In this document: piece after piece, positions 2,003 to 47,500 of the stretch
Layout of the letters: every line of letters starts with the position of its first letter
How positions within the stretch are numbered: position 1 is the stretch's first letter
Source of the DNA: Kiritimatiellales bacterium
GTDB taxonomy: Bacteria > Verrucomicrobiota > Kiritimatiellia > UBA8416 > JAIOPI01
Assembly: GCA_945949405.1 (NCBI GenBank)
Contig: CAMFEP010000001.1
Location: forward strand, 1 to 53,002
DNA: 53,002 nucleotides
Direction: 5' to 3'
Position numbers and translations under genes: made by a program
The notes under the pieces: generated by a model
What the model saw: only the letters and a program-made list of their open reading frames with translations
Told to the model about the DNA's origin: nothing
Database searches by the model: none

Positions 2003-3277
2003 ATGCGCAAATGGGCTGTGGTGCTCCGTAGAAGCGATAACGTGCGAACGGCGAGTTCCTTTCGTAAGCGGATCTCGCTGATTCTGTGGACACTTCTCGT
2101 GAGCCCTGTTTTGCCGGGTGCGTCAGCTCAAGACGCGTCAGAGTCGGCCAGGCAATCCACTCGATCTCGGCGCGTGCTCTACAACTTCGACGGCGACTCG
2201 TGCCTCTCGACCAAGGCCGGAAGCAAGGGTCCAGTGGCCGTGAATGTCGACGATGTGAAGCGGTTGATCGATGAGGTTGCCTACGAAGGGAGTCGCGTCG
2301 ATACGGTGCTGGTCTGCGTGAATGCGCAGGTGATGTACTATCCGACGCAGGTCGGCACCATGCGCGGCGCGCTGTCGACGCCGGAAGAGCGCGCGAAATG
2401 GCCCGCGTCTGAGAAGCAGCGGTTCCAGAACCTGAAGGCTTTCTTCGACGCTGGGGTCGATCCGTACGCGGTGATGCTGGTCGAGGCGAAGCGGCGCGGG
2501 CGTGAGGCGTTGCTCACGTTCCGCATGAACGACGATCACGGCGACGATTGTCTCCGCACGCAGTTCCTGGTCGATCATCCCGACTGGCGGCTGGGAACAG
2601 AAAGGTATCGCGGCAAAGCAGCGCTGGACTTCGCCCGCGACGAAGTTCGCGACTACACGTTTCGGCTGATCGAGGAGGCGGTTCGGCGCTACGACTGCGA
2701 CGGCATCGAACTCGATTTCAACCGCTTTCCGACGTTCTTCAAAGACGGCTCGACCGGCGAGCGTGTGGCGAAAATCAATTCGCTGGTCGAGCGCGTTCGT
2801 AAGATGCTCGACGACGTCGGAGGCGAGCGGGGAAGGCGGCTGTTGCTTGCCGTCCGCCCGCCGTCGAACTACGGCCGCCCGCCGCCAACGCCCGAGTCCG
2901 CGCGGGCGCTTGGTTGCGACGTACCGGCCTGGGCGACGAACGGCTGGGTTGATTTCGTCGCGGTCTCCGAGTACCTGTTCGAGCGCGGCGATCTGCCGAT
3001 CGACAAGTGGAAGCAGGCGATCACGACGGTTCCGATTTACGGCGGCATCGAATGCATGCAGGGAGAGGGGAAGAAGAATCTCTCTGCCGACGAATATCGC
3101 CATGCGGCCACGCAACTCATCAAGGCCGGGGCGGACGGCGTCTACCTGTTCAACTTCTTCACCTCGCGCGAAGGCGGCGAGAACGCTTACGAACCGCCAT
3201 TCGACGTGCTACGAGATCTGGGACCGCTCACGAGGACCCAAACGCCGAGGCTTAGCCCGCTTTATGCCACGCCGTAA
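2003..3277 (+). CDS. Secreted TIM-barrel glycoside-hydrolase-like protein (family unresolved)
   Basis: ORF track 1901..3277. ATG 2003 is preferred because MRKWAVVLRR...LILWTLLVSPVLPGASAQ reads as a signal peptide. The body (LTFRMNDDHGDD, ALDFARDEVRDYTFRLIEEAVRRYDCDGIELDFNRFP) resembles (beta/alpha)8 glycosidase-like proteins. Confidence 0.55.
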   Translation: MRKWAVVLRRSDNVRTASSFRKRISLILWTLLVSPVLPGASAQDASESARQSTRSRRVLYNFDGDSCLSTKAGSKGPVAVNVDDVKRLIDEVAYEGSRVDTVLVCVNAQVMYYPTQVGTMRGALSTPEERAKWPASEKQRFQNLKAFFDAGVDPYAVMLVEAKRRGREALLTFRMNDDHGDDCLRTQFLVDHPDWRLGTERYRGKAALDFARDEVRDYTFRLIEEAVRRYDCDGIELDFNRFPTFFKDGSTGERVAKINSLVERVRKMLDDVGGERGRRLLLAVRPPSNYGRPPPTPESARALGCDVPAWATNGWVDFVAVSEYLFERGDLPIDKWKQAITTVPIYGGIECMQGEGKKNLSADEYRHAATQLIKAGADGVYLFNFFTSREGGENAYEPPFDVLRDLGPLTRTQTPRLSPLYATP

Positions 3278-38375: not shown

Positions 38376-39638
38376 CTACGGCTGGCCCTTATTCGTTTCC
38401 AGACTCCGTAAAAGTGCAGCGCCCCGTTCCGAGATGGTTTTGATCAGACGCTCAGCCATGGCCGCATCTTCCGCGACGTTTCGCACACGAGGGTCCTGCA
38501 GGGCATTAACAGCAATTCGAGAGAGGGACGCCATGCGCTCGCGCATCATGGGCCAGCCTAGACGCGTCTCCTGGGCCATTTTCCGCCAATGCGTGGGCGT
38601 GATTTCATTGATGGACTCGGCGCCTCCAATCTTCATTGCCGGGGTCTTCGACAGTTCGGGCCAGGCCAACGTGCAAACCAGATCATAGAACGGTGCGAGT
38701 CTCCGTTCGTCGCCACGGTAGAGGATGGAGAAGTTTTTGCCGTGGGCGTCGGCATTGCCAATCAGCATGTTGAAGATCAGGCCATCGAGGAAATCTCGAA
38801 TGTCCAGCACCGGCGTGGTGGACCACTCGCGGAGCAGCCCGATGCAATCGCGGAGCAACGGTCCGCCCTCCGCCTGGTATTTGCGTTCCGGCGGAAATCC
38901 GAGCGCCTGGCAGAAATCCTCCTGGTGAACGCGTGTGACGACACTGTCGGCGCCAATCAGCCGATCGTATCGTTCGACCAGGATGCAGGCTTTGTCGCCG
39001 ACCCGCCGACTGTGGACCGCGGGCACGCGCAAGCCAATCGTCCGGGCGAGCGTCATGCAGAACAGTTCGTTGGCGGCCAGTCCGGGCAAACGATCCGGCT
39101 CAGGTTTTAAGATATGGGTGCTCGGTGTATTTCCGAGCGGCAAGGCGATGCCGGACTCGCGCACCACGACCGGTAGCTTGTCTTGCGCGCCGGCAAGAGA
39201 GAGTCGTATGCCTTCCTCGCCCGCCATCAGCGGACGACGGGGAAGTTCGGCGACAACATCCTGCAGCTCCTTCTCGCTCAGCTGGCGCAACCGCGTTTCG
39301 CCGATAGCGGGTGGCGCAACACCTTCGGGCAACAGACAGACCGCGCCCGCGCATTCGCCCCCGATCCGTTCCAGCATGGCAAAATCGTTGGCATCGCTGA
39401 TGCCGAGAATGGCGGCGATCTGCCGCCGCGGCCCCTCTTCGGGCAGGATGCCGGCGAAGAAGGCGCGAGCATGCTTTCCCCGGAATGCTTCGTCCTGCAA
39501 GGGAAGCATTCGCGAAAGTGGCCGTGCCGCAGGATTCCGAATCCAATCAGGTCTATAACGGAACTCGGCGATGTCGTTGTCGTCCTCTTCGAGCGTGCCG
39601 ACCGCTTCACTGTTCAGGTAGACGACTAAACGTTTCAT
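38376..39638 (-). CDS. hipA: HipA-family serine/threonine kinase toxin
   Basis: 420 aa. MKRLVVYLNSEAVGTLEE..., SLAGAQDKLPV, THILKP, VERYDR, VHQEDFCQALG, NADAHGKNFSILY. ATGA overlap with hipB. Confidence 0.9.
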   Translation of the reverse strand: MKRLVVYLNSEAVGTLEEDDNDIAEFRYRPDWIRNPAARPLSRMLPLQDEAFRGKHARAFFAGILPEEGPRRQIAAILGISDANDFAMLERIGGECAGAVCLLPEGVAPPAIGETRLRQLSEKELQDVVAELPRRPLMAGEEGIRLSLAGAQDKLPVVVRESGIALPLGNTPSTHILKPEPDRLPGLAANELFCMTLARTIGLRVPAVHSRRVGDKACILVERYDRLIGADSVVTRVHQEDFCQALGFPPERKYQAEGGPLLRDCIGLLREWSTTPVLDIRDFLDGLIFNMLIGNADAHGKNFSILYRGDERRLAPFYDLVCTLAWPELSKTPAMKIGGAESINEITPTHWRKMAQETRLGWPMMRERMASLSRIAVNALQDPRVRNVAEDAAMAERLIKTISERGAALLRSLETNKGQP

Positions 39639-39874
39639 GGTTTGCTGTTCCCGATTCTGTCGGAACCGGAACTATCAGCTTGCAGTTTGATCCCCAGAGC
39701 CTGGAGCACCTGCAGGATCTTCCCGATGTGGCAGGTGGGCTTGCCGCCCTCAAGATCAATGATGAAGCGCAGGCCGGTGCCGCAGGTCATGGCCAGGTCT
39801 TTCTGGGTAACCCGTAATTCCTTGCGCCGAGCGCGGATGAGGATTCCAAGCTGCTCTGTGCTGGTAATATTCAT
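39635..39874 (-). CDS. hipB: HipB-like XRE-family HTH antitoxin
   Basis: ORF 39635..39898. ATG 39874 (MNITSTEQLGILIRARRKELRVTQKDLAMTCGTGLRFIIDLEGGKPT) is preferred because the upstream 24 nt are an operator palindrome. Confidence 0.8.
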   Translation of the reverse strand: MNITSTEQLGILIRARRKELRVTQKDLAMTCGTGLRFIIDLEGGKPTCHIGKILQVLQALGIKLQADSSGSDRIGNSKP

Positions 39875-39876
39875 AG

Positions 39877-39989
39877 TTCCCGTTCGGGAATATTCCATAT
39901 GCGCTTCGTCTCGTCAATTCATAAAGTTCCCGAACGGTAATATTTATTACATCGCGCCGACGCCAGGTGAATATGTTCCCGATCGGGAG
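39877..39989. promoter_or_regulatory. Three phased palindromic operators upstream of hipBA
   Basis: TTCCCGTTCGGGAA (39877-39890, perfect), TTCCCGAACGGTAA (39927-39940), TTCCCGATCGGGAG (39976-39989). Spacing is 50 and 49 bp. Flanks are shared ((A/T)(A/T)G before, TAT after the first two). Confidence 0.65.
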
Positions 39990-40172
39990 TGCCCGCAACC
40001 AAACATAGCCGCCAACCTGATCGCCCAGCTATGGACAACCTCGTCATGATGCGGGCGTCTTTCCTGTTTGTCGGCAACTGGCGTTCGCTTCGGGAACACG
40101 CCGTCGGCGAGAAGGCGGCCGTGGAGCGCAATGGCAGGACGTACTGCTCGGCGTCGTGGCTCGAGCCCTTCT

Positions 40173-40182
40173 CCCCCCCCCC
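40173..40182. repeat. C10 homopolymer (G10 on the gene strand) abutting the AraC-family stop codon
   Basis: Plus strand reads CT-CCCCCCCCCC-TCA. On the minus strand, TGA (40185-40183) is followed immediately by G10. Confidence 0.9.
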
Positions 40183-41082
40183 TCACGATTTGGCATGCCG
40201 GCTGCCCTTGTGGCGGTGGCGGTAGGTGCCGGGGGTACAGCAAAAGTGGCGCCGGAAGACGCGATCGAGGTGACTTTCGTGGGAGAAATCCCAGTCGAAG
40301 GCGATGGCCTTGATGGGAAAGTCGGTGAGGCTTAAATCCTGCGCGACGCCGTTCAGCCGACAGCGCAGGCCGAACTTCGCGAAGGAAACGCCCATTTCCT
40401 TCTCGAAGTGGCGGCTGAAGTGATCAACTGGCAGCTTGAGGCTGTCCGCCATCATCTCGGTGGTGAGGAGGCGGCGCGACTGCATGGCCTGGTTGGCGGC
40501 GAGGAGGACGTCGGTGTCGCGTTCGCGGTGGTGCTGCGGCACGGCGTCGGCAGCCGCAGTATTCATGAGGGCGAGCAGGGTCTCCATCAGAATCAACTGG
40601 ACGCGAATATCGCCGGTATCATGGCGCTGATGCACGGCCTCGGCGAAGCGTCGGCCCAAGGCCAGCATGGCATCGCGCTGCGCGGGCGGCACACGTCCCC
40701 GTTCTGTCGGCGGCGACTGAAACGGCGCCAACCAGTCGATGGGGGTGCCGCCGGGCAGGCGCGTCTCCACCAACAGCCCCCGCCGAAAAATCAGGAAGAC
40801 CAGATCGCAGGGAGCCTGCACGATCTGGTAGCCGTGCGGTTCGAAGGCGTCGTGCAGCCAAACCTCGCCGGGGCCGAGGTCGCGCTTGACCGGCCCCCAG
40901 AAGCGACGGACGCACCCTTTCAGCACCATCCCGAATTCCAGATCGTCATGGATGTCGAACCAGGGATGCCGATCCACCGGCTTGTCCACGCGGATGTCGC
41001 CCGTCATGGGGGCGCTGGCCGAAAGGTGGAAGTCGTAACGGATCAGGGCGGTTTTTGGGGGCTTTGTCTGCTTCCGCTTCAC
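40183..41082 (-). CDS. AraC-family transcriptional regulator (cupin N-domain plus HTH)
   Basis: 299 aa, GTG start in the track; ATG 41007 is an alternative. Cupin-like: HPWFDIHDDLEFGMVLKG...WLHDAFEPHGY. C-terminal HTH: MADSLKLPVDHFSRHFEKEMGVSFAKF...IKAIAFDWDFSHESHLDRVFRRHFCCTPGTYR. Confidence 0.85.
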   Translation of the reverse strand: MKRKQTKPPKTALIRYDFHLSASAPMTGDIRVDKPVDRHPWFDIHDDLEFGMVLKGCVRRFWGPVKRDLGPGEVWLHDAFEPHGYQIVQAPCDLVFLIFRRGLLVETRLPGGTPIDWLAPFQSPPTERGRVPPAQRDAMLALGRRFAEAVHQRHDTGDIRVQLILMETLLALMNTAAADAVPQHHRERDTDVLLAANQAMQSRRLLTTEMMADSLKLPVDHFSRHFEKEMGVSFAKFGLRCRLNGVAQDLSLTDFPIKAIAFDWDFSHESHLDRVFRRHFCCTPGTYRHRHKGSRHAKS

Positions 41083-41084
41083 GG

Positions 41085-41127
41085 TGCGGAATTATGCTGG
41101 AGGCCTTGGGATATGCAAGTCGGAAAG
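41085..41127 (+). promoter_or_regulatory. Conserved upstream motif, copy 1 (direct repeats GGAATTATGC / GGGATATGC 20 bp apart)
   Basis: TGCGGAATTATGCTGGAG-GCCTTGGG-ATATGCAAGTCGGAAAG. Nearly identical to 44373-44416. Lies between the AraC-family gene start and the beta-helix gene. Confidence 0.6.
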
Positions 41128-41191
41128 GGTGCCAATCGGGGCCCGCCAAGGTATTGATGGAAGCGCGCAGCATGCTCTCGCGCAGCGCGGT

Positions 41192-41204
41192 GGGGGGGGG
41201 GGGG
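41192..41204 (+). repeat. G13 homopolymer in the leader/promoter region of the beta-helix gene
   Basis: The sequence reads GCGGT-GGGGGGGGGGGGG-CGGCG. It lies 61 nt upstream of ATG 41265 and 65 nt downstream of the conserved motif. Confidence 0.9.
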
Positions 41205-41264
41205 CGGCGAACCGTTCATGTTCGATTCCGGCGGTGCAGATCCCGTCGACGAAAGGGTAGGGCC

Positions 41265-44237
41265 ATGTCGAAGCTACGCAGCCTGTGGGTGATTGCGGTA
41301 ATGGGCTTCGCAACCTGGAGCGGCGGGCGCACGACACAGGCTGCGGTGGTGTATGTGGATGCGGGGATGGCCGGCCGCGGCAGCGAAACCAACGGCCTCA
41401 GCTGGGAAACTCCCTGGATCGATCTTCAGTCCGCGCTCGGTGTGGCGGCCGGCGGCGATTCAATCTGGGTAGCCAGGGGCGTCTACAAACCCGGGGTCAG
41501 CACCAACGACGCCTTCGTGCTGCCGGGCGGCGGCCTGCTGTATGGTGGGTTCACCAACGGCATGGCAACGCTGGAGGAGCGCGTGCCCCTCAAGCATCTG
41601 ACGATTCTGAGCGGTGACCTCCTGGGCAATGACGGCCCCAGTTTTGCCAACCGCACAGACAACGCGCTGAATGTCATCCGTTGCACGGGCGGCACCACCC
41701 GCAGCAACATCCGTCTGGATGGGTTCGTGATCCGCGGTGGCAACGCCGATGGAGCCGGGGCGCCGAACGATACCGGCGGCGGCGGGCACTTTGACCTGTG
41801 CCACGGGCTGGTCATCGCCAACTGCGTCTTCACGGACAATTCCGGCAAGGGCAGCGGCGCCATTCGCCTGCGCCGCTCGAACAACGTGGAAATCCAAGAC
41901 TGCATTTTCAGCGGGAATCGCGCCACCGATGCCACCAGCAATTTCGGTTCCGGCGCGATCGGTGGCAACGACCAGTTCTTCACCAATGTCGGTTATCCCG
42001 CCAACGTGCGGCGCTGCATCTTCACGGGCAACGCCTCCGCCGGACTGGCGGGTGTGACCTACGATTCGTCCGCCGCCTGGAACATCAACTTCATCAACTG
42101 CCTGATGGCCGGCAACACGGCGCTCTCCAACGGTGGCGCGCTCTACCTGCGCGGCGGGACCAATGCCATGGTCAACTGCACGATCGCGCTTAACGACCCC
42201 TTTGGCGTGACGACGCGCCTGACCACGAACATCTGCGTCAACACGATCATCTGGAGCAATGGGCTGGGTGGGGTCGCGAATCCCGATGTGGACCGCCAGA
42301 ATGGCGGCACGCTGGCGGTGCAGTTCGCGGACATCAACCACGGGACGTACTTTGGGCTAAACGGCACGATCATGGCGGATCCGAAGTGGGGTGCGGGTAC
42401 GCAGAGCACCTGGAATGCGGCCGGGGTCTATAGTCCGGCCCTGGGCCAGACGCGGTTGCGTCGCACCACGGCCACCTGGGCGGCCGATGCCTACCGGGGC
42501 ATGACGGTTAATCCTGACATCACGCAGAAGCGCCACTTCCTGATCAGTTCAAACTCGGCGACCGAGGTCTATGTCTGGGGCGATGCGCAGGCGATCGCGG
42601 GCTCCGGCGATATGTTTCGCGTCTGGGATTTCCGCCTTGGCGCCGGCAGTCCCTGTATTGATACCGCGACCAACGGCATCGTGTCTGACGACGTCATCCG
42701 GACGCCCCGGCCGCGGGGATTTGCGACGGACATGGGCGCCTACGAGTCCACGGCGACGGGCACGGTTGCGGGTGTGATCTACGTGAAGGCCAACGCCGCC
42801 GGCGGCAACAACGGGTCGGCCTGGGAGCATGCCTACACGAATCTGCAGTCGGCGCTGGCCACGGCATCGGGCGACAGCAAGAACCAGATCTGGGTGGCCG
42901 CCGGCACATACCGGACGGGAGCCGGCGTGGCGGCGACGTTTCTGCTGCCCACCCGCGTGCCGGTCTACGGCGGCTTTGCGGGCAACGAGGTGGCCCTGGA
43001 ACAGCGCAACATCGCGGCCAACCCGACGATGCTCAGCGGCGACGGCGACAGCAACGACACCGCTAATTTCGCCAACCGCGCCAACAATGCGGCGCACGTG
43101 ATCTCGGATCTCTACACCAAGAACGTGCGGCTGGACGGGGTTGTGATTCGTGGCGGCAATGCCACCGGCGTCGCCAGTGCCGGCTATGGCGGCGGCCTGT
43201 ACAGCGAAGGCAGCACCAACCTCGTGATTGCAAACTGCTCGTTCGTGGACAATTCGGCGGTGGGCGGCGGCGCGGTCTACATCAATGAACCGGCGCCCGA
43301 CTGGGTCACGATTTCGGATTGCGTCTTCAGCGGCAATCGCGCGACAGAACAGGACAACGACGTGGGCGGCGGGGCGATCGCGGGGGCGCGCGAACCGCTG
43401 GCCGCCGGGTACTTGCGGGTGGAGCGCTGTGTGTTCACGGGCAACCGGGCGCCCCAGTCGATCGGCGGCGTCTACGCCATGCACAACGAGTATCCGCTGG
43501 TTTCGCGCTTCGAGAACTGCCTGGTGGCCGGCAACCAGTCGGGCTACACCAACGAGGTTGACATTACGGGTCCGCAGGGCGGCGCCTTCTATCTGCGCCG
43601 CACGAATGCGGTGGTTCAGAACTGCACCATCGCCCTCAACCAGCCCTACGGGATGACGATCCGGCACCTGACGGCGTCGGTACAAAACACGATATTGTGG
43701 AGCAACACGACGCGGCAGATTCTATTCCTGACCCCCAGTGCGGTGTCGGCCCTCGCGTGCGACATCGACCAAGAGAGCTTTGAGGGGGCGAACGGCAACA
43801 TCCGTCAGGATCCGCAGTGGGGGCTCGGTACGAACGGCGTCAGCACCGGCGTCACGTACAGCCCCGCCACCGGCCGGTCGACGCTGACGGTTTCCGGCAG
43901 CGCTTGGGCGGCCGGTGCCTTCGCCAACCGCGCGGTGAACCCGAATACGGCCCAGAGTCTGCAGTTCTGGATCGTCACGAACTCGGCCAGCCAGCTTACC
44001 GTTTGGGGTGACATCCAGGCCGTGGCCGGTGTCGGCAACCCCTTCCGGGTCTACGACTACCACTTGACGTCCGCGAGCCCCTGCGTCGACCGTGGGGCGC
44101 TGCCGGGCGCGCCCGGCACGGACCTGGAGCAGGCCGTGCGTCCGGTGGCGAGCTTCCCGGATATCGGGGCCTACGAATTCGGCCCCCACCTGTACCAGCC
44201 GCCGGCTGTTCCCGGTGTGCTTTTGATCGTACGTTGA
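41265..44237 (+). CDS. Secreted protein with two tandem parallel beta-helix (Pmp-like GGA/FxxN) modules
   Basis: ORF 41055..44237. Start taken at ATG 41265 (MSKLRSLWVIAVMGFATWSGGRTTQA signal peptide), 990 aa. Module heads: VVYVDAGMAGRGSETNGLSWETPWIDLQSALGVAAGGDSIWVARGVYKPG and VIYVKANAAGGNNGSAWEHAYTNLQSALATASGDSKNQIWVAAGTYRTG. Repeated turns: GGAIRL..., CIFSGNRA, GGALYLRGG..., CTIALN. Confidence 0.8.
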   Translation: MSKLRSLWVIAVMGFATWSGGRTTQAAVVYVDAGMAGRGSETNGLSWETPWIDLQSALGVAAGGDSIWVARGVYKPGVSTNDAFVLPGGGLLYGGFTNGMATLEERVPLKHLTILSGDLLGNDGPSFANRTDNALNVIRCTGGTTRSNIRLDGFVIRGGNADGAGAPNDTGGGGHFDLCHGLVIANCVFTDNSGKGSGAIRLRRSNNVEIQDCIFSGNRATDATSNFGSGAIGGNDQFFTNVGYPANVRRCIFTGNASAGLAGVTYDSSAAWNINFINCLMAGNTALSNGGALYLRGGTNAMVNCTIALNDPFGVTTRLTTNICVNTIIWSNGLGGVANPDVDRQNGGTLAVQFADINHGTYFGLNGTIMADPKWGAGTQSTWNAAGVYSPALGQTRLRRTTATWAADAYRGMTVNPDITQKRHFLISSNSATEVYVWGDAQAIAGSGDMFRVWDFRLGAGSPCIDTATNGIVSDDVIRTPRPRGFATDMGAYESTATGTVAGVIYVKANAAGGNNGSAWEHAYTNLQSALATASGDSKNQIWVAAGTYRTGAGVAATFLLPTRVPVYGGFAGNEVALEQRNIAANPTMLSGDGDSNDTANFANRANNAAHVISDLYTKNVRLDGVVIRGGNATGVASAGYGGGLYSEGSTNLVIANCSFVDNSAVGGGAVYINEPAPDWVTISDCVFSGNRATEQDNDVGGGAIAGAREPLAAGYLRVERCVFTGNRAPQSIGGVYAMHNEYPLVSRFENCLVAGNQSGYTNEVDITGPQGGAFYLRRTNAVVQNCTIALNQPYGMTIRHLTASVQNTILWSNTTRQILFLTPSAVSALACDIDQESFEGANGNIRQDPQWGLGTNGVSTGVTYSPATGRSTLTVSGSAWAAGAFANRAVNPNTAQSLQFWIVTNSASQLTVWGDIQAVAGVGNPFRVYDYHLTSASPCVDRGALPGAPGTDLEQAVRPVASFPDIGAYEFGPHLYQPPAVPGVLLIVR

Positions 44238-44372
44238 GCGCATGTGCGGGGGCGGCGCTGACGGCGTACACGCGGGCGTAAAGTTGAGGTTGAAGGGCTA
44301 CATCATTACCGGCGTGGACGCAGGGAGTGTTTCGCAGTTAAGCTTCCTCCCCCTGAGGCCTGCCCCGCGCGC

Positions 44373-44416
44373 TGCGGAATTATGCTGGAGACACAGGAAT
44401 ATGCAGGTCGGACAAG
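44373..44416 (+). promoter_or_regulatory. Conserved upstream motif, copy 2
   Basis: TGCGGAATTATGCTGGAG-ACACAGGA-ATATGCAGGTCGGACAAG. Lies 100 nt upstream of ATG 44516. The 18-nt left block is identical to copy 1 and the right block differs at 3 positions. Confidence 0.6.
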
Positions 44417-44515
44417 TTGTCTGATTGTCTGGAAATAGTTAAAATTTGGTGTGAAATGGGCTTAGGTCCAACCGGTCTGTATCGTCGCGCGCGCGCCTTG
44501 GGAGGCATCCAACGT

Positions 44516-47500
44516 ATGAACATCTGGCGTCAGCTATGCTGGGTTGTGGGGATGGGGCTGGTGGCGGGGTGGGGCGGGTTGCCGGCGGCACGGGCGACGG
44601 ACTGCTCGGGCGGCAATTCCACGAACGACAGTGGCGGATACCGGATTCACACCTTCACCAGCGGCGGCACGCTGACCGTCAACACGGCCGGCAACGTCGA
44701 CGTGCTGGTGGTGGGCGGTGGCGGCGGCGGCGGCGGCTATGTGGGTGGCGGCGGCGGTGGCGGCGGCGTGATTTACACCTCGGGCTTTTCGGTGGTGGCC
44801 GGCGGCATCTCCGTGACGGTGGGGACGGGCGGTACGGCGGGCGCGAACGCGGACGCGGGTTCCGCCACGGGCGGCGCGGGCGGGAGCAGCATCTTTTCCT
44901 CCCTCACGGCCGGCGGCGGCGGCGGGGGTGGTCGAGCCTACAACCACAACAACGGCTCGGTGGCCGCCGGTTCGGGTGGCGGCGCCGGTTGCAGCAACGG
45001 CGGCGTGAAGACCGGGCAATCCGGAACCAGCGGCCAGGGAACCAGCGGCGGCGACTCCTCCGCAACGTCGAACTATGGCGCTGGCGGCGGCGGCGGCGCC
45101 GGAGGGGCCGGCTCCAACGGCACGGACACCAAGGGCGGTGACGGAGGCCCTGGGTCCACGAATTCGATTTCCGGTGCGAGCGTGACGTATGGCGGCGGCG
45201 GCGGCGGCGGCAAATACTTTGGCACCTCCGGCGGTAGCGCGGTATCCGGTGGTGGCGGCAATGCGGGCAGTCCGGGACAAGCGGGGACGGCCAATCGCGG
45301 TGGTGGCGGTGGCGGCGGCGGGGTGAATCCAACCGCCGTCGGCGGCGTCGGCGGCACCGGTGTCGTCATCGTGCGCTATGCGCTGCCTGGAACACTCTCG
45401 ATCGATGTCACGCCCAACACGGCGTCGTGGACGATCACGTCCTATGCCGGTGGCTACGCGGGGCCCTTGAGCGGCACCGGTGACCTGGCGGCGACAACGG
45501 CTCCCGTGGGCAGCTACACCGTCCACTACAACGTGCTGGGCGGCTACAGCGCCCCGGCGGATCAGACGCTGAGCGTGGTCGCGAGCGCGAACACGGCGTT
45601 CAGCGGCACCTACGTGGCGGCGGTGTATGGCACGCTGTCGATCGACGTGACGCCGAACACCGGGTCCTGGACCATCACCTCGCATCCGCCAGAATACACC
45701 TCGCCGCTGAGCGGAACGGGAGACCTGGCGGCAACGACCGCCATCGTGGGCAGCTACACCGTTCACTACGAAGCGCTCGCGGGCTATTTTGCGCCGGCCG
45801 ACGAGACGCTTTCCGTGGTCGACAGCGTGAACACCGCGTTCACAGGGACGTACACGGCGGTAACGTATGGCACGCTCTCGATCAACGTCACACCGGACGC
45901 AGCGTCATGGACCATCACCGCGTACCCCGGCCCCTATGCGGGACCGTACAGCGGCAGCGGCGACCTGGCGGCAACGACCGCACCGATCGGCAGCTACACG
46001 GTGCACTACAACACGCTTGCGGGCTACCTGGCGCCTGCTGACCAGACGCTGTCCGTGGCGCTCAGCGCGAACACGGCCTTCAGCGGATACTATCCCCGGG
46101 AGCCGTTTGCGGCGACGGGCGGCAACTCGACCAACGACGTTGGCGGGTATCGCATTCACACCTTCACCAGCGGCGGCACGCTGACCTTCAACACCAACGG
46201 CAGCGTCGACGTGCTCGTGGTGGGCGGCGGCGGCGGTGGTGGCGGCTACGTGGGCGGCGGCGGCGGCGCGGGCGGTGTGATTTATCAGACGGGGTTTGCC
46301 ATTGCCGGGGCGGGTGGAATTTCCGTGACGGTTGGGACGGGCGGTGCGGCCGGGGCGAATATCGACGGGCCGACGGGCTCTGGCACGGCGGGCAATGCGA
46401 GCACGTTCTCCTCGCTCACGGCCGGTGGTGGCGGCGGTGGTGGCCGGGCCTACAACCATAACAATGCCACCACGGCGGCGGGTTCGGGCGGTGGCGCCGG
46501 AACGGGCGTTAGCCGGATCGGACAATCGGGAACCGCCCCTCAGGGAACCAAAGGCGGGGACTCGGATGTTACGAGCAATGAGGGCGCTGGCGGCGGCGGC
46601 GGGGCCAGTGCGGGTGGTGGCAACGGCAACGCGACCAAGGGCGGCGATGGTGGCGCCGGCGTCGCGAATTCGATTTCTGGTTCGAGCGTGACGTATGGTG
46701 GCGGTGGCGGTGGCGCGGCGTACTTTGGCACGGCCGGCGCCGGCGGCGCGGGCGGCGGCGGGAGCGCGGCTAACCCAGGTGTGGCCGGCACGGCCAACCG
46801 CGGCGGCGGCGGCGGTGGCGGCGGCGTTTCGGTCACGACGTCCGCGGGCGGCGCCGGCGGCTCGGGCATCGTGATTGTGCGGTATGCCCTGCCGGGCACG
46901 CTCTCCATCGACGTCACGCCAAACACGGCCTCGTGGACCATCAGCGCGTATGCGGCGGGATACTCAGGGCCGACCAACGGCACCGGGGATCTCGCGGCGA
47001 CCACCGCGCCCGTCGGCAGCTACACCGTTCATTATGAAACGCTCGCGAGCTACAGCGCCCCGGCGGATCAAACGCTGAGCGTCACGGCCCAGAACAACAC
47101 GGCGTTCAGCGGCACCTATACGGCGGCGGCCTACGGCACGCTCTCGATCGAGGTGACGCCCAACTCGGGCTCGTGGACGATCACGTCGCACCCGCCGGAA
47201 TACACGACGCCGTTGAGCGGCACCGGGGATCAGGCGCCGACCAACGCCATCGCCGGCAGCTACACGGTTCACTATGAAACGCTCGCCGGGCACCTGGCGC
47301 CGGCGGATCAGACGCTGAGCGTGGTGGCGAGTTCCAACACGGCCTTCAGCGGAACCTATACGGCGTTGACCTACGGGACACTCTCGATTGACGTGACGCC
47401 GAATTCGGGTTCGTGGACGATCACGTCATACCCCGCGGGGTACTTGACGCCGCTGAGCGGCAGCGGCGACCTGGCTGCCACCGCCGCGCCAGTGGGCAGC

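Follow-up and report, generated by a model that had tools for sequence, protein, structure and literature searches.

A run of thirteen G residues lies in the predicted 5' leader of a gene for a secreted beta-helix protein, and its length differs between closely related strains of the same lineage. The run was found in a DNA stretch of 53,002 nt, hereafter the window. We consider it rather likely that it is a slippage-prone leader tract in which length changes have no effect on expression, or a minor one (small and graded), and that it does not act as an ON/OFF device. This reading is derived from comparative sequence analysis.

The G13 tract and its locus

The first-pass annotation had described thirteen consecutive G at 61 nt from the start codon ATG 41265, and had regarded them as the longest homopolymer of the window. 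Both statements were confirmed, the first in the letters themselves (41192-41204, forward strand) and the second by a homopolymer census, in which the runner-up was a C10 at 40173-40182. The immediate flanks of the tract are ...gcgcggt-GGGGGGGGGGGGG-cggcgaacc..., and its wider context in the window is ...gcgcagcgcggt-G13-cggcgaaccgttcatg...; a 43-nt motif (41085-41127) is located upstream. When the census was extended to the whole MAG (1.96 Mb, 163 contigs), G13 was the longest internal homopolymer. The single longer run is a C17 formed by the last 17 bases of contig C125 (C125:5959-5975), which is probably a poly-G read-tail artefact of two-colour chemistry, since it sits at a contig end, right next to the inside of an amylase-like CDS. 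It was also observed that contig C93 ends in C10 (C93:8447-8456) and that the related MAG G003 has G runs of ~50 at contig ends.

The number of G/C runs of at least 13 nt expected by chance was 0.001-0.025 in the 53-kb window and 0.04-0.9 in the whole 64%-GC genome (ranges over Markov orders). Considering that in a genome with 64% G+C such a run is not very improbable, G13 is unusual locally and only mildly so genome-wide. The MAG contains 31 G/C tracts of at least 9 nt, 18 of them intergenic and 7 at the edges of crude ORF calls, the non-coding share of the MAG sequence being 14%. Because long G/C tracts are common and mostly non-coding here, a long tract in a leader is not exceptional in this MAG.

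The tract is inside a 182-nt divergent intergenic region, between an araC-family gene on the reverse strand and the beta-helix gene on the forward strand; a giant Gly_rich_2 gene is the next one downstream of the latter. The features of the locus are the following.

40173..40182, + strand: second variable homopolymer, C10 (G10 on the araC strand), directly past the araC stop codon
40183..41082, - strand: AraC-family regulator, 299 aa from GTG 41082, with HTH_18 and HTH_AraC
41088..41127, + strand: conserved motif with two direct half-sites, GGAATTATGC and GGGATATGC, 20 bp apart, directly 5' of the -35
41129..41134, + strand: -35-like hexamer GTGCCA (motif offset 41-46)
41152..41157, + strand: -10-like hexamer TATTGA, 17 nt past the -35-like hexamer (motif offset 64-69)
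41172..41264, + strand: leader ORF, opening at the first predicted-transcript AUG and crossing the tract
41265..44237, + strand: secreted right-handed beta-helix protein, 990 aa
44376..44445, + strand: second motif copy and giant-gene promoter TTGTCT-17-TAAAAT, with hexamers spanning 44417-44445

The N-terminus of the regulator from GTG 41082 is conserved in a genome of the same genus (G001) and in one of the same family (G003), and the start ATG 41265 is backed by the G001 orthologue and by the database gene call. The product of the large surface-protein gene noticed on first reading is indeed a secreted beta-helix protein: it carries a Chlam_PMP repeat (27.5 bits, cut-off 20.6) and two choice-of-anchor Q domains behind a canonical signal peptide; no autotransporter domain was found in it by Pfam and NCBIfam scans. 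The locus is common to relatives named 'Lentisphaerae bacterium' (a Lac Pavin/Lake Fargette MAG) and 'uncultured Victivallales'. A search of genome contigs with the AraC profile matched the G001 and G003 records only, and the same search of metagenome contigs gave no relatives. The exact flanks of the tract had 0 matches in genome and metagenome contigs, and the best relatives retrieved with a 321-aa N-terminal fragment, in a search for further strain contigs, had at most 47% identity.

A paralogue of the beta-helix gene, of 888 aa, is found at C131:445-3111, with a C9 at 65 nt upstream and a C10 and a C9 just downstream. These tracts (372-380, 3120-3129 and 3176-3184; L030) were invariant in three other assemblies.

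Predicted promoter and leader

Half-sites separated by 20 bp and abutting a -35 would fit an AraC/XylS-type activator site as known for this family, and the motif is presumed to be the binding site of the adjacent AraC-family regulator. The motif starting with GGAATTATGC at 41088 is repeated at 44376, before the giant gene, and it is also present in G001 and G003. Across the order, 16-nt matches to the motif were mostly coincidental, and the full architecture was confined to the family-level copies.

Seven full copies of the motif from three genomes were aligned by the motif start. The -35-like hexamers at offset 41-46 were GTGCCA, TTGTCT, GTGCGG, TCGCCA and, in three copies, GTGCAG; the -10-like TA-hexamers at offset 64-69 were TATTGA, TAGATT, TAAGAT and, in four copies, TAAAAT. 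The spacer between the two hexamers was exactly 17 nt in 7/7 copies, and the site of the second copy (44417-44445) was scored as promoter-like by a promoter scan. Taking into account this shared geometry and the score of the second copy, we infer that the -10 of the beta-helix gene lies at 41152-41157 and the transcription start at about 41163-41166. With this start, G13 would occupy about +29 to +42 of a leader of ~100 nt. The tract is downstream of the motif (41088-41127), of the -35 (41129-41134) and of the predicted -10 (41152-41157), from which it is separated by 34 nt, and an SD-like AAAGGG lies between it and ATG 41265; an SD-like sequence also precedes the main ATG of G001. The original placement of the tract in the leader, between the motif and the ATG, is thus supported by the comparatively predicted -10 and the SD-like AAAGGG.

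Other roles were considered for the tract and rejected. No -35/-10 pair spanning G13 was found on either strand, so it does not seem to be within a sigma-70 promoter, and in this it differs from the G9 tracts of contigs C130 and C135. A riboswitch or structured leader was discarded by the lack of Rfam matches in 39500-45000 and by a fold weaker than that of shuffled sequences (z +2.7). The tract is not part of a dispersed repeat either, since BLAST of the intergenic region against the MAG gave a single match, the 18-nt motif match at 44373.

Regarding the tracts of C130 and C135, both G9 (C130:4087-4095 and C135:3817-3825) are located inside predicted sigma-70 spacers, in promoters of the form TCGACG-17-TATAAG and TTGGCG-17-CATACT, where G9 is followed by CG and then by the -10. 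The two were invariant in 3-5 independent assemblies. An REP-like intergenic repeat is also present in the MAG in ~32 copies; it is based on GGGATCGATTCCGATTCCGAT, within a longer imperfect palindrome ...GGAATCGGTATCGGCGTCGGGATCGATTCCGATTCCGAT..., and its copies include C135:3905, C103:130, C30:4276 and 5 in contig C17. Several copies are at most ~100 nt away from long G/C tracts.

The tract is crossed by the leader ORF. With G13, no stop codon separates either TTG 41055 or AUG 41172 from the main ORF, and the behaviour of the leader ORF depends on the number of G residues: at G10/13/16 it is fused in frame to the main ORF, at G9/12/15 it overlaps the main start out of frame, and at G8/11/14 it stops 4 nt ahead of the main start. 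The tract nonetheless appears to be leader and not mature ORF. In G001 the start of the orthologue corresponds to ATG 41265, and the AUG upstream of it is out of frame with an ATGA overlap; GC3 past the tract is 0.47 versus 0.79 in genes; the main ATG has the SD-like AAAGGG; and in the G9 (-4) allele described below the upstream frame is shifted and the beta-helix gene is still intact and under purifying selection (dN/dS 0.09).

It had also been proposed that the giant gene could be phase variable by co-transcription with the beta-helix gene. We found this unlikely, because the giant gene is preceded by a motif copy and a predicted promoter of its own, TTGTCT-17-TAAAAT (44417-44445), with a terminator-like hairpin further upstream at 44200-44217. 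In the giant-gene-type promoters of G001 and G003 the spacer gattgtctggaaaNNgt, the TAAAAT and the early leader are all conserved. The leaders of this type (44446-44516 in the window; L064, L065, L068) have a start-codon-like triplet (ATG/ATG/TTG/GTG) at 10 nt past the -10, and ...GGTGACACCGG... comes after it. The triplet of the window, ATG 44456, shares its frame with ATG 44516; in the relatives the triplet begins an 8-codon uORF in L064 and L068 and a longer uORF in L065.

Tract length among strains

Independent public assemblies were reached via the 90% protein cluster of the regulator. The tract is G13 in L011 (ERZ27280287), which has 2 SNPs with respect to the window in 12.5 kb, and G9 with identical flanks in L013 (ERZ27265269). 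In the 2.46-kb alignment of L013 with the window, 3/3 indels are in repeats, namely G13 turned into G9, the C10 of 40173-40182 turned into C8, and a single tandem unit of GTGGCG. The two sequences differ by 8 SNPs in the 1,525 nt of hipB, araC and the intergenic region, a divergence of 0.5%. For the tract at 40173-40182, C10 was found in the window, in L011 and in a Logan contig of ERR5863101, and C8 in L012 and L013.

As controls, we followed five other tracts of 9-10 nt of the MAG, and all of them were invariant in 3-5 samples each. Four of these loci were at least 99.9% identical to the MAG, and the fifth, the G9 of C135, was unchanged at 0.9% divergence. G13 thus behaves as length-unstable on the strain timescale, to judge by these alignments, and exceeds shorter tracts in this respect. 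A defect in mismatch repair was rejected as the explanation of the instability, given that MutL is present in the MAG together with a MutS fragment at a contig end, and that full MutS is present in relatives. In the congener G001, at ~75% DNA identity, the motif is kept and the tract is only G5, with GCGGGGGCG at the aligned place; with G5 in the congener, the long tract does not appear to be conserved at this locus.

The comparison with related strains, suggested with the first description of the tract, therefore gave a divided answer: the length does differ (G13 versus G9), but the long tract is absent from the congener (G5). The slipped-strand mispairing put forward at the same time is in line with the strain length alleles. 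The switching mechanisms cited with it are not directly applicable at this position, the tract being outside the -35/-10 spacer, the gap between activator and promoter, and the mature ORF.

Other differences were seen in the surroundings of the tract. The GTGGCG indel (6 nt, in frame) is at the 3' end of araC (40210-40215), and by this unit the AraC-family protein has 299 aa in the window versus 297 aa in L012/L013. Position 40242 is A in the window and C in L011/L012/L013, with one AraC residue altered. The Logan contig of ERR5863101 stops exactly one base short of 40242, which suggests that both alleles coexist in that run. In L012 (ERZ27265268) the synteny with the window is lost at L012:2916-3010, which corresponds to ~41147/41148, 4 nt before the predicted -10. 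Past the break, which falls inside the promoter spacer, the sequence CAGGGCC... replaces the G tract and the beta-helix gene, and there follow a 461-aa gene with DruA and DDE_Tnp_1_assoc matches and then other genes; the break reflects either an insertion, the junction of an island, or a second copy of araC.

The beta-helix gene itself presents, at 41470-42227, a mosaic of divergence between the window and L013. There are 54 SNPs in 1,036 nt of this gene, and the 8 already mentioned in the adjacent 1,525 nt. The dN/dS of the gene is 0.09, as in purifying selection, so the block of 5% divergence was read as an imported recombination block, which it resembles, and diversifying selection was rejected.

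Possible effects of tract length and known systems

In the reading that we favour, the tract would have grown stepwise from a short run of G, in a GC-rich leader under little constraint, as the G5 of the congener and the G9 and G13 of the strains suggest, and slipped-strand mispairing would continue to change its length. The tract would lie between the AraC-type activator site with its sigma-70-like promoter and the SD-like AAAGGG with ATG 41265, and changes in its length would leave the promoter geometry and the frame of the mature protein untouched. Since from this position it could alter neither of them, we regard the tract as a probable hot spot of mutation with little or no effect on expression, and we infer that the length change is neutral or weak in its consequences. 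The location outside the core promoter and the mature reading frame also means that classical ON/OFF mechanisms would not be directly applicable; any effect would presumably be post-transcriptional, through the frame of the leader ORF, pairing with an sRNA or pairing of SD-like type.

There are several points against neutrality. Both tracts that flank araC changed at 0.5% divergence of the flanks and the other tracts were invariant, a pattern that fits length-dependent instability and equally a locus under selection for variability. The secreted beta-helix protein belongs to the type of gene governed by contingency loci, and its paralogue at C131:445-3111 likewise has a C9 at 65 nt upstream. 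The locus varies in other ways too, with the mosaic in the beta-helix gene and the break of L012 before the -10. Moreover, the G-repeat in the leader of Helicobacter pylori tlpB controls expression (PMC8295292).

It is possible, though we judge it unlikely, that the tract is a true contingency switch of the leader, with selected length variation and a several-fold post-transcriptional change in the output of the beta-helix protein. The change could be produced by pairing with a C/U-rich sRNA loop in the manner of RepG, by a G-rich SD-like decoy or standby site, or by the leader ORF, which would have three states (fused to the main ORF, overlapping its start or ending 4 nt upstream of it). The position in the predicted 5' UTR, the G13 and G9 alleles of strains 0.5% apart in the flanks together with the second variable tract next to araC, the invariance of the five control tracts, the three-frame behaviour of the leader ORF and the C9 upstream of the paralogue all agree with such a switch, as does the fact that the SD elements of related leaders are G5-G6 (GGGGG) or GGGAGG runs, by which measure the tract could be an SD-like element of great strength. 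A precedent exists in the 5' UTR of tlpB-hp0102 of H. pylori, whose G-repeat has 6-16 G (12 in strain 26695) and varies in length between and within strains; there, graded regulation according to repeat length by the conserved sRNA RepG, through a C/U-rich loop, has been demonstrated (PMC8295292). The switch is weakened by the congener, where G5 indicates that the long tract is not a conserved feature, by an upstream AUG located ~6-9 nt from the predicted transcription start without SD, and by the unstructured leader; no candidate sRNA came up, Rfam having no match in 39500-45000; in addition, two alleles in two strains are expected of any long homopolymer.

A translational frameshift switch seems improbable. 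It would place the true start at AUG 41172, so that the tract would code for Gly4 within an Arg-rich extension added N-terminally to the signal peptide, and the extended isoform would be ON at G10/13/16 and OFF at other lengths. In its favour, the frame of G13 reaches the main ORF without a stop from AUG 41172 and already from TTG 41055; an AUG is found at 6-14 nt past the -10 in the four motif copies compared, and in G003 that AUG is the apparent true start of the signal peptide. However, the extension is not conserved, the upstream AUG of G001 being out of frame with its ATGA overlap, and codon usage past the tract is non-coding-like (GC3 0.47 vs 0.79). An SD-like sequence precedes the main ATG itself, a canonical signal peptide starts there, the aligned triplet in the giant-gene leaders is ATG/ATG/TTG/GTG and is mostly followed by early stops, and an open frame of 31 codons would arise by chance in ~40% of cases in 64%-GC DNA (base-composition estimate).

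We give very little weight to the idea that the C13 of the reverse strand tunes araC, or that the tract sets the helical phasing of regulator sites, as in AraC looping. The tract belongs to the intergenic region that the two divergent genes share and is 110 nt upstream of GTG 41082, two variable tracts bracket araC, and an inverted half-site-like sequence containing GGAAT is present downstream of the tract at 41221-41230; this distal half-site is weak, though, and absent at the second motif copy. The best promoter candidate of the reverse strand, TTGCAT-16-CATAAT (41115-41088), is inside the motif and far from the tract, and no -35/-10 pair crosses the tract on either strand.

That the length is a sequencing or assembly artefact, such as a poly-G read tail or a homopolymer miscall, is hardly credible and largely refuted: Illumina homopolymer lengths are error-prone, the MAG has a contig-end C17 resembling a poly-G tail and related MAGs have G runs of ~50 at contig ends, but this tract has unique flanks inside a 53-kb contig, G13 is reproduced in the independent assembly of another sample, and the G9 of the third assembly co-occurs with strain-specific SNPs and C8 at the other tract. 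As the same unique flanks surround G13 in L011 and G9 in L013, the tract itself is not an artefact of assembly.

Returning to the slippage-prone leader tract, its placement can be compared with that of known loci. The contingency tracts of Neisseria, Haemophilus and Campylobacter are located in the ORF or in the -35/-10 spacer, where they produce ON/OFF or stepwise promoter changes. With these loci the present one shares a hypermutable G/C homopolymer beside a surface-protein gene and length alleles among strains; unlike them, it was found, when tested, to have its tract in neither the ORF nor the -35/-10 spacer. In terms of simple-sequence contingency loci, we found a G/C tract above the usual ~8-9 nt (G13) and polymorphism among close strains (G13 vs G9), and did not find a placement that alters the reading frame or the core-promoter spacing. 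It is plausible but unproven that this is a simple-sequence contingency tract.

In Bordetella, the poly-C of the fim promoters is between the BvgA site and the -10, so its length would alter the promoter geometry; here, unlike in fim, the tract is downstream of the predicted -10. The homopolymeric tracts of Bordetella, poly-C in fim promoters included (PMC1891110), resemble the present case in the GC-rich genome where long G/C tracts are common and polymorphic among close relatives, and in that they adjoin surface-protein genes under a transcription activator.

By phylogeny and type of protein, the closest precedent is the poly-G of the chlamydial pmp genes (PMC3323650). In these, poly-G tracts are within the ORF and cause frameshifts, and the Pmps are autotransporters (PMC3323650). 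Both cases belong to the PVC superphylum and have a long G tract associated with the gene of a Pmp-repeat/beta-helix surface protein; here, unlike in pmp, the tract is 61 nt before the start, outside the ORF, and the protein has no autotransporter domain in Pfam and NCBIfam. A Pmp-family protein would be expected to combine GGA(I/L/V)/FxxN repeats with an autotransporter barrel.

By position, the closest precedent is the leader G-repeat of H. pylori tlpB. In both, a G run of strain-variable length is in the 5' UTR (here a predicted one), outside promoter and ORF. The differences are in the graded regulation by a conserved sRNA, demonstrated for H. pylori, and in the host, here a free-living member of Lentisphaerae with MutS and MutL.

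As the evidence stands, one strain-polymorphic homopolymer is documented at a variable surface-protein locus. Among the papers listed by a literature search on phase variation in Lentisphaerae, none described it. The predicted promoter architecture (AraC-type site, -35 and -10) makes reporter tests straightforward. We hold as doubtful that the tract is a selected, length-variable leader element that gives a graded or three-state output of the beta-helix protein, either by the frame of the leader ORF or by a pairing of the G run that is RepG-like or involves the anti-SD; if true, Lentisphaerae would have its first described contingency locus, and the poly-G of chlamydial pmp genes would have a counterpart in a free-living bacterium. 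If the tract modulates expression, it would be the second leader-located G-repeat regulator after that of H. pylori tlpB, and simple repeats would be a source of stochastic surface variation also in PVC bacteria that are environmental and non-pathogenic.
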